A stretch of DNA of 64,000 nt from Sphyrna mokarran (lineage: Eukaryota). A model generated the notes under the pieces. It saw only the letters and a list, made by a program, of their open reading frames with translations. It was not told where the DNA came from and ran no database searches. How positions within the stretch are numbered: position 1 is the first letter of the stretch; each line of letters starts with the position of its first letter. The DNA is taken from positions 58,156,001 to 58,220,000 of the forward strand of contig JAGIQG010000006.1 of NCBI GenBank assembly GCA_024679065.1, in the 5' to 3' direction. Below, one piece after another: positions 5,083 to 61,385 of this stretch. Position numbers and translations under genes: made by a program.

Positions 5083-6830
5083 TAAGAAGTCTCACAACAC
5101 CAGGTTAAAGTCCAACAGCTTTATTTGATAACAAAAGCCATTAGCTGTCGGGCCTCTGACCCTTCGTCAGGTGAGTGGAGAGTTCTGAGTTCAAACAGGG
5201 GATGTAAAGACACACACTCAGTTTACAGAATACTGATTAGAATGCGAGTTTTTACAGCTAATCAAGTCTTAAAGGTGCAGACAATGTGAGTGGAGATAGC
5301 ATTAAGCATGGGTTAAAGAGATGTGTATTGTCTCCAGACAGGACAGTAAGTGATTCTTTGCAAGCCCAGGCAAGTCATGAGGATTACAAATAGTGTGACA
5401 AGAACCCAAGATGCCAGTTGAGGTCTTCCTTGTGATGGAACTTGGCTATCAGTTCCTGCTCAATGACTCTGCATTCTCCTGTGTTGTAAGGCCGCCTTGG
5501 AGAATGCTTACCCGAAAATCAGAGGCCAAATGCCTGTGACCGCTGAACTGTTTGCCAACAGGAAGAGGACAGTCCTGTCTAGTGATTATCGAGCGATGTT
5601 CATTCATCTGTTGTTGTAGCATCTGCATGGTCTCCCGATGTACCATGCCTCGGGACATACTTTCCTGCAGCATATCAGGTCGACAACGTTGCCAGGTTGC
5701 AAGAGTACGTACTTGGTGGATGGACCTCGAGATGATGGCATCTGTGTCAAGGATCTAGCATATCTTGCAAAGATTGCTGTGGCAGGGTTGTATGGTGTCA
5801 TGGTCACTGTTCTCCTGAAGGATGGGTAGTTGCTGTGGACAATCGTTTGAGTTTGTGCAGTTGTTTGAAGGCAAGAAATGGGGGTGTGGGGATGGCCTTG
5901 GCGAGATGTTCATCTTCATCAATGACATATTGAAGACTCAGGAGAAGATGTCATAGCTTTTTCGTTTTGGGGAAGTACTGGACAGCAAAGGGTTCTCTGT
6001 CCACTGTGCCCTATGTTTGTCTCCTGAGAAGGTTGGTGCAATTTTTGGCTGTGGTGCATCAGAACTGTCGATCGATGAATCAAGCGCCATATTCTGTTCT
6101 AATGAGGGCGTCTTTTAGAATCTGGAGGTGTCTGTTGCGAACCTCTCATTTGAGCAGATCCTGTGTATATGGAGGGCTTGTCCGTAGGGAATGGCTTCTT
6201 TAATGTGTTTAGCGTGGAGAAGTGAAGCGTCATGAGGTTATCCGTGGACTTGCAGTACCATGAGGTGCTGAGGTAACCGTCCTTAATGGAGATGCGTGTG
6301 TCCAAGAATGAACTGATTCCTGAGAGTAGTCTATGGTGAATCTGATGGTGGGATGGAACTTGTTGGTGTCATCATATAGTTGTTTCAGCGATTGTTCACC
6401 ATGAGTCCAAAGAAAGAAAATATTATTGATGTATGTAGTGTATAGCATCGGTTGAAGGTACTGTGCAGTGAAGAAGTCTTGTTTGAGTCTGTGCATGAAG
6501 ATGTTGGCATATTGAGGTGCGAACCTGATCCCCATGGCTGTTCTGTATGTCTGGATGAAGAACTGGTTGTTGAAGGTGAGGACATTGTGGTCCAGGTCCA
6601 GGTGAATGAGTTGTAAAATTGCATCTGGAAACTGGCAGTTGTCAGCATTGCATACTGAGGTAGTTGCAGTAATGCCATCGTTGTGGGGGATGCTGGTGTA
6701 GAGTGCCGAGACATCCATAGTGACAAGGAGTACCCCTGGTTCAACTGCTCCATGTGTGCTGAGTTTCTGTAGGAAGTCCATAGTGTCAAATATGACTCCT
6801 CCAGTGGAGAGTTTACCGTTGATTCCCATT
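5083..6830 (-). mobile_element. Penelope-like retroelement: decayed RT + GIY-YIG endonuclease + terminal pLTR region
   Basis: LVTMDVSALYTSIPHNDGI, TAMGIRFAPQYANIFM, YINNIFFLWTHG (PLE RT) and YIG...RMNEHR-like / LPVGKQFSGHRH (GIY-YIG) spread over frameshifted ORFs. Confidence 0.92.
5138..5176 (-). ncRNA. Minimal hammerhead ribozyme motif in Penelope terminus (degenerate, GACA instead of GAAA)
   Basis: Minus strand reads cucac-CUGACGA-a-gggucagaggccc-GACA-gcu-a-auggc. Confidence 0.55.
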
Positions 6831-7216
6831 GATCTATTAGGAATCCTTCATAATGTTTGGTCAAATGTTGCAGTGATAGCAAAGGCATTCATTGTCCCTT
6901 CACATCTGCAGTTGAGCTCTTGTGTCTATATTTGAACAAAAACTCAAATGAGACCTGAAGCTGATTGACTCGAGCGTGACCCAAATTGAGCATTAGTGAA
7001 TAAGTGTTGGTTGATCACATTTTTATCAGCTTCTTCATTACTTTGATTTGCTGACAATTTGGAATAAAATGGTGATATGGTAATTGGCCAGATTGAATTT
7101 GTTCTGCTTTTTGTGGACAGGGCATGTTCAGGAAAATTTCCATTGTCTTGTTGGAATACCTTGATTTACCAGAGAGAGAGTTCTTGAGCAAAGATCTTCA
7201 AAATTATTGGGAAGTG

Positions 7217-7545
7217 ATGGTCTCGTGGTGTTGTCACTAAACTGTTAATTCAGAAACTCAGTTGATATTCTAGAGGCCCAGGTTTGAAACCCATCATGGC
7301 AGATGGTGAAATTTGAATTTGATAAAAATATCTGGAATTAAGAATCCACTGACCATGAAACCATTGTCGATTATCGGAAAAACCTATCTAGTTCGCTAAT
7401 GTCATTTAGGGATGGAAATATGCTGTCCTTATCTGGTCTGATCTACATGTGTCTCCAGAGCCACGGCCACTTGATTGATTCTCAACTGCCCTCCAAGGGA
7501 TAGGCAATAAATGCTGGCCACAAATTCCCTCAAATGAATAAAAAG
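7217..7545 (+). mobile_element. tRNA-derived SINE (second family; related copies at 32915-33145 + and near 14230-14510, 34800-35060, 57255-57560 -)
   Basis: B-box-like ggtttgaaaccc and a body shared with 32915-33145 (gaaaccattgtcgatt...gttcactaatgtccttta). Confidence 0.7.
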
Positions 7546-7827
7546 ATTATAGCTGGGATGTTGTAGGACTGGTAGCCTTTGTTTCTAGTTCACTTCATAT
7601 CATGCACAGTAGTTAGAATTGGCTGAGGTCCGGGATCTGTTGACATGCTCGGGAGAAAGCCAAGTTGAATCATATATAATCACTTCCTTTGAAAGGTTTG
7701 TTGCAAATGCATCAGTTTTGCTTTTGTACTTTCTGGGCTCCAACATTGTTGAGGGTACTTGCTGTTACTTGCTTCATTTTCACTACTGCTCATGATTTGA
7801 TGTGGCAGAGGTTTGATCTGATTTGTA

Positions 7828-8406
7828 GATGGCACAGTGGTTAGCACTATTGCCAGGACCTGCGTTTGATTCCCAGCTTGGGTCACTGTCTGTGTGGAGT
7901 TTGCACATTATCCCTGTGTCTTCATGGATTTCCTCCAGGTGCTTCTGTTCCTGCCCACAGTCCAAAGATATGCAAGTTAGATTGATTGACCACAGATTTA
8001 AGGTGCAGGGAAGCAAATACAAAGGAGATGTCAGGGTTAGGTTTTTCACTCAGAGTGGTGAGTGAATGGAAACGACTGCCGTCGGAGGTTGTTGAGGCAA
8101 ACTCACTGGGGTCTTTTAAGAAACTTCTGGATGAGTATATGGAAACGAATAGGATAGGGGGTTATGTATAGGTCTGTGGATTGGTAGATGTGATCGGCGC
8201 AACTCGTGGGCCGAAGGGCCTGTTTGTGCTGTATTGTTCTATGTTCTATGACCATGCTAAATTGTCCATAGTGTCACAGGATGTAAAGGGTAGAGGGATT
8301 AGAGGCTAAATATGTGAGGTTACAGCGACACAACCTGGGGTGGGATTATTGTTAGTGCAGACTTGATGGACAGAATGGCCTCTTTCTGCACTATAGGGTT
8401 TCTATG
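7828..8406 (+). mobile_element. HE1/V-SINE-type SINE split by a young CR1 3' fragment (about 7990-8250)
   Basis: A-box ggcacagtggttagcac and V-domain ctgtgtggagtttgcac. The insert is flanked by tgacca and is highly similar to 26255-26522. Confidence 0.85.
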
Positions 8407-8737
8407 ATTGGTTGGATGGGGGATTGCTCAAACATTGATTCTTCTGCCTTTCACCTTAAATCAGTATCCTCTGGTTCTCTATCCTTTGGCCAACAAGAAC
8501 AGTATGTGTCTTTTTATACAGCCTACAGCTATCACTGTTTTGAACACCCCTTTCAGGTCTCCAGTCAACCTTCTCTTTAAGAAGCTTAACTACTCCAATC
8601 TATCTTTAAAAGAATATCACAAGTAAATTAGAAAGCAGGGCCTCAAAAATAGTAATCTCTGAATTATTGCTCAAACCACATACAACTTTGCGTAGGATCA
8701 CGCAAATAAGGAGAATTAAGTTTAAAAATAAATTTTA

Positions 8738-59920: not shown

Positions 59921-60548
59921 TTTCTTGTTCTTGTTCTTGTATTTTTGAGTTTGGGAATATTGGAAAAAATTGGTAAATGTGTGTGTATGTATAGTGTGCA
60001 TTTGTAGAGCTTGTATTTGTGTATTCGGAGTAGAGTGATTGAGAACTGGAGATAATTTTCTTGGTCATAAATTTATGCTATTACTGAACACGTTTCAACA
60101 TATGAATAGAATGTATAATGCCAAACGAATTAGTTGCCAGTCTCTCGTAAAAACGTGTCAGGTCTTATTGTTTAATATGATTTGTTCCCATTACATTGAT
60201 AGAAGAGAATAAATTGCTCTCATTCATGTATAAACCTTTCACTTGGAAATGGATTCATAGTTACTTTTTAAGTTATGACCTCTATTGTTACGTCGGCAAT
60301 GAATTTGCGTTCAGCAAGGCCTAACAAGCACTGATAAGGTAAATGACTTGCTTTTAAAGAAATCAGTGCATGAACATTGTCATATTATGCAAGCATTTTG
60401 TTAAAATGTTTATCCATTCCTTTATGAACAAAATGTTATACTGGAATTCTATACTGTGAAATTAATTTCTGGGATGCTGTTTCAAACAATTTTGAATTGT
60501 TATGCACAGACTAAGTTTAGTTTTAACCACTGTTATTTGAATATGCAG

Positions 60549-60688
60549 GTGGTTTACAAGCAATAGCTGAATTGTTGCAAGTCGATTGTGAAATGTATGG
60601 ACTCACTGATGACCATTACAGTGTTACGTTGCGGCGATATGCTGGGATGGCACTTACAAATTTAACGTTTGGGGATGTTGCAAATAAG
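60549..60688 (+). CDS. apc: APC coding exon 11 (140 nt), GGLQAIAELLQVDCEMYGLTDDHYSVTLRRYAGMALTNLTFGDVANK (armadillo repeats)
   Basis: Acceptor atgcag|, donor aag|gtagga. Near-identical to vertebrate APC. Confidence 0.97.
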
Positions 60689-60876
60689 GTAGGAAATTTA
60701 TGATGGAAACTGTTAGATCTTGCATCCTCAACTAGATTTGTTGGTCTTCTTCTGTTACGTTTCCACCAATTTCTATTTCGTTTTAGAATTCTATTATCTG
60801 CAAAAAAATTGCATTTTACTTCTTTTGCACTGTCACTTTAAACAGTACATGTATTATACAGATAGACTGGGCGACA

Positions 60877-61142
60877 TGATGGCACAGTGGTTAGTACTAT
60901 TACCTCAGTGCTAGGGACACAGGTTCGAGTTCTGGCTTGGGTCACTATTTTGCAGAGTCTGCACATTCTCTTTGTGTCTATGTGGGTTTCCTCTGGATGC
61001 TCCAGTTTCCTCCCACATCGACCATGCTAAATTCTTCCTCAGTGTACCCAAACAGGCACTGGGATGTGGCAACTAAGGGATTTTCACAGCAACTTCATTG
61101 CAGTGTTAATGTAAGCCTACTTGTGACTAATGAATAAACTTT
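60877..61142 (+). mobile_element. HE1/V-SINE-type SINE
   Basis: tggcacagtggttagtac, ggttcgagt, V-domain and family 3' end. Confidence 0.88.
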
Positions 61143-61170
61143 ATTTTTATTTTACTTTCTATAAATCAAT

Positions 61171-61385
61171 GAGAAGTCTCGTAACTAGGCTGAAGTCTAA
61201 CAGGTTTACTTGGTAGCATGAGTTTTCGAAGTGTTGCCCGTTCATCAGGTAAGTAGTCACTCAACTTTTGAAGGAGTTGTGCTCCGAAAGATCATTCCAC
61301 CAAATAAACCTGTTGGACTTTAGTCTGGTGTTGTGAGACTTCTTACTATGTCCACTCCAGTCCACCACCAGCATCATCACATCAT
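61171..61385. mobile_element. Fold-back element made of two inverted Penelope termini
   Basis: 61171-61254 is an imperfect reverse complement of 61259-61346. Both arms match 5083-5176. Confidence 0.85.

Follow-up and report, generated by a model that had tools for sequence, protein, structure and literature searches.

The stretch of DNA considered here (the window: 64,000 nucleotides (nt) of contig JAGIQG010000006.1 of the shark Sphyrna mokarran) carries coding exons of APC on its forward strand and, in the APC introns, five copies of a terminal repeat of about 90 nt. A sequence-only reading had placed the terminus at these five sites and had taken it for a minimal hammerhead ribozyme (HHR) carried by Penelope-like elements (PLEs). 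All five copies were found again, on the reverse strand at 5083, 41772, 59573 and 61171 and on the forward strand at 61259-61346, each in an intron, and the proposed Penelope origin held, the termini being colinear with PLE open reading frames (ORFs). There is very little doubt that the five repeats are the pseudo-long terminal repeat (pLTR) ends of Neptune-type PLEs with a minimal type I HHR motif. Read on the element strand, the terminus opens with a stem I arm of 6 nt and continues with CUGAYGA, one additional A, the stem II hairpin, GAAAGCU-H, the other arm of stem I and then a tail that is conserved. The complete CUGAYGA-A-stem II-GAAA-GC-UH motif, ascribed earlier to every copy, is present only at 59626-59665, the sole window copy to pass the strict motif descriptor; the other four copies have core lesions. 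The features are collected in Table 1.

Table 1. Features of the window, with positions counted from its first letter (RT, reverse transcriptase; UTR, untranslated region; L271, a complete element described in the text)
Feature	Position	Strand	Evidence or remarks
5'-truncated, decayed Neptune-type PLE	5082..6783	-	RVT_1 E=3.7e-4; 79% identity to L271 over 1761 nt; parts: RT core, Cys linker, GIY-YIG remnant, 3' UTR, terminus
Minimal HHR, damaged core (A14 to C, G1.1 to A)	5136..5176	-	5-bp stem II GGGUC/GGCCC
PLE 3' fragment, about 620 nt	41767..42447	-	blastn vs L271
Minimal HHR, stems I and II intact, G15.2 to A	41824..41863	-	
Solo terminus of about 99 nt, 5' junction at -7 from C3	59568..59666	-	
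Sole intact minimal HHR of the window	59626..59665	-	strict descriptor
Left arm of head-to-head fold-back insertion, decayed HHR, 5' junction at -6	61171..61254	-	
Right arm of fold-back with optional tail of about 40 nt, core dead, 5' junction at -7	61258..61387	+	
APC	4241..62943	+	tblastn with 3 of 93 APC homologues; PDB match
APC coding exons, approximate (1)	4241-4462, 20312-20428, 23597-23716, 24825-24917, 27916-28071, 46475-46576	+	
APC coding exons, approximate (2)	50221-50676, 54399-54497, 60548-60691, 62187-62285, 62815-62943	+	

The copy at 5083 had been called a full element. It covers only positions 1370-3118 of a 3130-nt reference unit and, because the first ~1.3 kb of the unit is absent, is instead a 5'-truncated insertion, flanked by a 16-bp target-site duplication (TSD; 5066-5081 and 6784-6799) and carrying stops, frameshifts and a broken RT core. 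Its HHR reads GACA for GAAA and has A at position 1.1, and the predicted fold differs from that of an HHR. The 41772 copy, 78% identical to it across 619 nt, has 67 nt in inverted orientation at the 5' end (42382-42447); its A at position 15.2 disrupts the AGCU palindrome of stem III, and the search for a TSD yielded just a 7-nt match, at chance level. The solo at 59573 lies within a 17-bp TSD (59551-59567 and 59669-59685) and is therefore a direct insertion, not a recombination remnant. Its HHR has a 6-bp stem I, a 4-bp stem II including one G-U pair, and U at H17, with scission predicted between 59632 and 59631; its folding energy (z=-0.72) is no better than that of shuffles. This solo is nested in another repeat (59000-59920, also at 15246-16286, 24337-24715 and 35829-36397), which may be akin to a long interspersed nuclear element. 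In the fold-back, for which a TSD was sought and none found, the reverse-strand arm has lost G10.1, G15.2 and G1.1, and the forward-strand arm has CUUUUGA in place of CUGAUGA and a deleted 3' arm of stem I.

The truncated, solo and fold-back formats proposed earlier are thus all seen, but not a full element in the window and not separate spreading entities; the formats are different-length insertion products of the same autonomous elements. The stem II differences that had been read as covariation proved partly so: GGAG/CUCC and GGG/CCC are true subfamily differences, but GAGG/CUUC is a one-sided private mutation, because its copy belongs to the same subfamily as that with GAGG/CCUC, and the subfamily majority is CCUC. 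An Rfam scan of the window (E<=5) detected no hammerhead; lacking helix III, such a motif would be expected to escape Rfam covariance models.

The carrier element was recovered by a protein search of the shark's own genome, in which 150 of 11,706 candidates were scored and six loci were fetched. Several of the 150 have open frames of 800-906 amino acids (aa) and, since many loci in this search do, the Neptune-type family was recently active. Among the six, L271 is a complete unit comprising an inverted 5' copy, a pLTR, the ORF and a second pLTR, the pLTRs being 99.3% identical. Its 906-aa open frame (an ORF of 893 aa from the first Met) encodes RT and then GIY-YIG in a single ORF (RVT_1, E=1.2e-9; GIY-YIG, E=4e-4, at 21.1 bits just below the 22.6 cut-off), and the HHR lies about 130 nt upstream of the ATG; a PDB search with the intact ORF gave no match. 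The cysteine linker (CX4CxxC) reads CHSNLCKTC in L271-L276 and CHSNLCKIC in the window copy. The RT-GIY-YIG ORF, partial-tandem pLTRs, inverted 5' copy and optional 30-40-bp tail place the element among the endonuclease-positive (EN+) PLEs. Assignment to the Neptune clade is probable from the CX2-5CxxC linker and the vertebrate host, the linker being also common to Nematis.

Other features of the fetched loci were seen as well. In L273 (303-6155) two near full-length copies of 2845 nt, 98.9% identical, lie head to head, a long form of the fold-back. The subfamily of L271-L274 and L276 has near-identical intact ORFs (97-99% between copies) and keeps the catalytic core, with a weakened distal stem I (e.g., ACUUGC/GCUAUU, L271:3051-3092) and no TATA-like box. 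A U at N7 puts an AUG inside the HHR core (CUGAUGA), and in L271 (3057-3079) this gives a 6-codon frame upstream of the main ATG.

Abundance was estimated in 160 evenly spaced 10-kb stretches of 14 large contigs (1.6 Mb). The search for termini used profiles built on the tail only, which kept the HHR from influencing which copies were picked. The sample held 147 termini, against zero matches of at least 10 bits on 1.6 Mb of reversed sequence, which extrapolates to about 255,000 genome-wide (bootstrap 206,000-303,000); 69 of the 147 have the optional tail and 44 an intact core. The strict descriptor matched 32 times (reversed control, 0), or about 55,000 times genome-wide. With 5 termini in 64 kb (78 per Mb, against 92 per Mb in the sample) the window is ordinary. 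No same-strand pair of termini closer than about 460 nt occurred in the 160 stretches, and hence no short tandem arrays there. A core could be parsed in 288 of 349 unique termini; 183 of these fall into 12 clusters of at least three copies and 105 are unclustered, so there are at least 12 subfamilies. In four RNA runs, two of them recorded as RNA-Seq, the family covers 29-30 of 30 bins, in contigs that do not resolve starts, cleavage or strand.

The sampled copies support the motif as a conserved RNA structure. The minimal type I architecture with palindromic AGCU at 15.1-16.1 is held by the subfamily majorities, as had been claimed. All 12 majorities retain C3-A9, G12-A15.1, U16.1 and an H17 that is not G, except for CpG-type decay; position 17 is U in 100, C in 66, A in 24 and G in 1 of 191 copies, and in 79 copies chosen regardless of the core the palindrome keeps G15.2 in 74 and C16.2 in 72. 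In the covariation alignment both stems covary at the subfamily level. For stem II, the 10.3-11.3 pair is formed in 76 of 81 copies (AU 28, CG 27, GU 10, GC 8; shuffled mean 38), 10.2-11.2 in 71 (shuffled 61) and 10.4-11.4 in 63 (shuffled 42); in stem I, 2.2-1.2 is paired in 75 copies, switching between AU (45) and GC (28), against 58.5 in shuffles. These shuffle tests are inflated by relatedness, but the pair switches nonetheless fall between subfamily majorities. Slid controls in 24 hand-picked copies lowered pairing from 89% to 19-47%; that set includes one copy missing its 5' half (61274), and the unbiased 81-copy counts are relied on instead. Covariation is thus strong for helix II and pair 2.2-1.2 and weak for distal helix I. 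Since core and stems are kept and G17 is avoided, catalysis was probably selected. The prediction that the core would be better conserved than its flanks stood against the upstream flank (p=1e-5, 79 core-blind copies) but not against the family-invariant tail columns (6.0% mismatch in the core, 4.9% in the tail, p=0.21). Because the core is no better kept than the invariant tail, selection most likely acted on master elements; the HHR was likely selected only in active masters, and inserted copies decay.

The ends of the copies point to how they arose. The 3' ends form two clusters, at about -41/-40 and at +1 to +3 relative to the ATG. The 5' junctions, counted once per insertion and compared with a flat hazard in a scan test, peak at -9 to -4 from C3, where stem I begins; this interval takes 18 of the 118 insertions in the sample (P<0.0001). 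The same peak is present at loci found by tail-only queries (16/85, P=0.0003), loci found with an HHR-containing query being left out of the hotspot tests, and in simple non-inverted insertions (13/132, P=0.001); three of the five window arms have their junction in it (-7, -6 and -7). There is no excess at the cleavage site within 1 nt (2/102 sampled and 1/80 tail-query insertions). As a control for artefact, long copies were miscalled in 0 of 113 cases, and in 0 of 107 with distant references only (<75% identity). More broadly, 54 of the 118 have their 5' end in the 25 nt upstream of C3, and fold-backs number 35.

The pattern BBCABW describes an initiator (Inr). Of 107 long copies, 97 match it with the A at -6, the sole such position in -150..+40, and 43 of the 107 have a TATA-like motif 27-34 nt upstream, other 8-nt windows having at most 8. 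At -7, 131 of 143 copies retain C, which is unpaired. Because AG is missing just before -6, the site was rejected as a splice acceptor of the D. virilis kind. On the strength of these motifs, the chances appear evenly balanced that transcription starts at the A opening stem I.

Since the junction peak coincides with the Inr-like base and none is found at the cleavage site, the ~95-nt solos and the fold-backs are likely run-offs of an uncleaved leader. As proposed, a pLTR promoter (Inr, with a TATA-like box at about -30) would begin transcription with the base that opens stem I, and RT would prime internally at either tail site in the leader. Some 95-135 nt further on RT would reach the 5' end of the RNA and run off, giving solos, and a cDNA end snapping back would give head-to-head fold-backs. 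Priming in the 3' pLTR would yield the longer truncated copies (5083, 41772) by reading through the uncleaved HHR, the template thus being uncleaved for both short and longer copies, and inserted copies would then decay neutrally. Internal RT initiation has been shown in vitro for an Anolis element, for which the HHR is dispensable for insertion and uncleaved RNA is the main substrate (PMC11167929, as available in part), and the literature seen describes cleavage by PLE HHRs as weak, occurring in dimers or with protein assistance. The whole account, of PLE pLTR ends with an HHR selected in masters and short copies that are run-off cDNAs of the uncleaved leader, is held with considerable confidence.

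Several observations weigh against it. Stem I pairs 2.3 and 2.4 covary no more than shuffles, and 2.5-1.5 is paired in only 35 of 81 copies. A within-family test found fewer mismatches in the core (8/661) than in the tail (78/2305, p=0.002), in copies pre-selected on the core. The -9 to -4 interval was picked after a first look at the junction map, and its excess over the -25 to -10 zone is just 1.6-fold (p=0.09; well-referenced subfamilies, >=90% identity). None of four ORF-attached 5' pLTRs starts at -6, three extending past -119 to the locus edge and one to -29, and the upstream pLTR of L271 runs about 640 nt further. Finally, the TATA-like box is missing in the intact-ORF subfamilies (0/30, 0/15, 0/3), yet their junctions lie at -8 to -6.

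The reach of ORF-attached pLTRs beyond -6 also suits an explanation, which we consider unlikely, in which the peak is unrelated to transcription start and reflects RT stalling, snap-back through microhomology of the stem I 5' arm with the core, or self-priming on an antisense template. Fold-back arms are enriched all across +45..-25, some junctions show short hairpin microhomology, and antisense self-priming has been proposed in PMC3846280 (seen in part). However, the peak is present in non-inverted insertions too, and the TATA-like and initiator motifs are spaced like a core promoter; a stall should lie downstream of the core rather than beyond the 5' arm, as RT would meet stem I from its 3' side. 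One version, stem I snap-back with one arm at -6 and its partner at G1.1, was inconsistent with the observed arm pairs. A second explanation, that the HHR cleaves the transcript in vivo during transposition and that RNA so cleaved, or circularised, is the template from which short copies are reverse-transcribed, as in retrozymes, we judge improbable. Core and stems kept across subfamilies, with G17 avoided, would suit it; a cleavage-in-transposition model was put forward in PMC4209133, and tandem retrozymes are described from one chondrichthyan genome (bioRxiv 2026.07.22.740005), both sources being available in part. Against it stand the lack of cleavage-site junctions, the retention in solos of the whole HHR part upstream of the cut, and the spacing of same-strand termini. 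Co-option of the intronic ribozymes by the host to regulate APC pre-mRNA can practically be dismissed: five copies do lie in APC introns, and co-opted intronic HHRs occur in amniotes (PMC6155905, seen in part), but the density is no higher than in the genome sample, four of the five cores have lesions, and no effect on APC is expected, because four copies are antisense and the sole sense copy, at 61258..61387, is core-dead.

As for the remainder of the window, ray APC homologues fit most of the exons better than the human homologue does, as would suit a cartilaginous fish. A large inverted repeat at 36929-38679, with arms of about 470 nt, 84-98% complementarity and a ~730-nt centre, looks like a fold-back or DNA-transposon remnant. 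Dimer cleavage is reportedly the subject of a study by Lunse et al.

The novelty implied for this class of ribozyme does not hold, for minimal HHRs of PLEs were described in PMC4209133 (this and the following sources being available in part) from fish Xena, Poseidon and Neptune elements, coelacanth and Xenopus. The shark motifs share with them the CUGANGA core, the extra nucleotide between 9 and 10.1, G10.1-C11.1, the palindromic 15.2-16.2, the lack of loop III and the short helix I, as well as many variable consensus families, mostly dispersed singles, and dual motifs on opposite strands. They differ in a stem II of 3-5 bp and a common U17, and in number, about 55,000 against about 4,000 in coelacanth and 9,000 in Xenopus, counted there with a different descriptor. 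No shark is named in the text of that source examined or in the two of its three supplement files searched; its monomers were inactive and its dimers weak. The carrier resembles Neptune EN+ PLEs (Craig et al. 2021, PMC8557442) in its single ORF with RT and C-terminal GIY-YIG, CX4CxxC linker (a mark of Neptune or Nematis), partial tandem pLTR, inverted 5'-truncated copy, optional 30-40-bp tail and heavy 5' truncation. The same source calls the role of the PLE hammerhead unclear.

Poseidon_Ac of Anolis (Frangieh et al. 2024, PMC11167929), of a different clade, likewise has two RT start sites bracketing the tail, an HHR in the pLTR leader, and copies made from uncleaved RNA, as proposed in the shark; its HHR is protein-assisted. 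Unlike the shark ORF, whose ATG lies about 130 nt downstream of C3, at the tail end, the Anolis ORF begins inside the HHR. A promoter inside the pLTR, likewise proposed here, is reported for D. virilis Penelope (PMC2377424) and Adineta Pen2a (PMC3846280), the latter with TCACT, an Inr-like motif, 20 bp downstream of a putative TATA; in the available parts of these papers neither the first HHR base nor a truncation hotspot is connected with the start site. Type I HHRs and derivation from PLE pLTRs are also features of non-LTR retrozymes (bioRxiv 2026.07.22.740005), and one of nine Xenopus dimers was cleaved; retrozymes form tandem arrays, unlike the window copies, which lie scattered, singly or head to head, and of which two have TSDs. 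In the literature searched, with subscription papers and Repbase outside its coverage, neither the PLE hammerheads of sharks nor the junction hotspot is described.

In summary, the shark family is real and its class already known, with no sign of a role in APC, and a ribozyme family of this sort is nothing unusual in a non-mammalian vertebrate. What this analysis likely adds is the 5' junction hotspot at the probable start site. The family is valuable because it offers a large natural data set for asking what PLE hammerheads do, with roughly a quarter-million termini, many subfamilies, covariation and a junction map; the latter argues for uncleaved-RNA templates and points to a start site at the first ribozyme base. 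Somewhat short of an even chance, and so offered tentatively, is the further idea that the HHR forms the first 40 nt of the shark Neptune transcript, with stem I doubling as the Inr of a TATA-Inr promoter, and that tens of thousands of ~95-135-nt solos and fold-backs, as run-offs of the uncleaved leader, record that start in the genome; the ribozyme would then serve, apart from the insertion step, as a switch at the 5' end that takes off the capped terminus, and would not be the processor of the insertion template.

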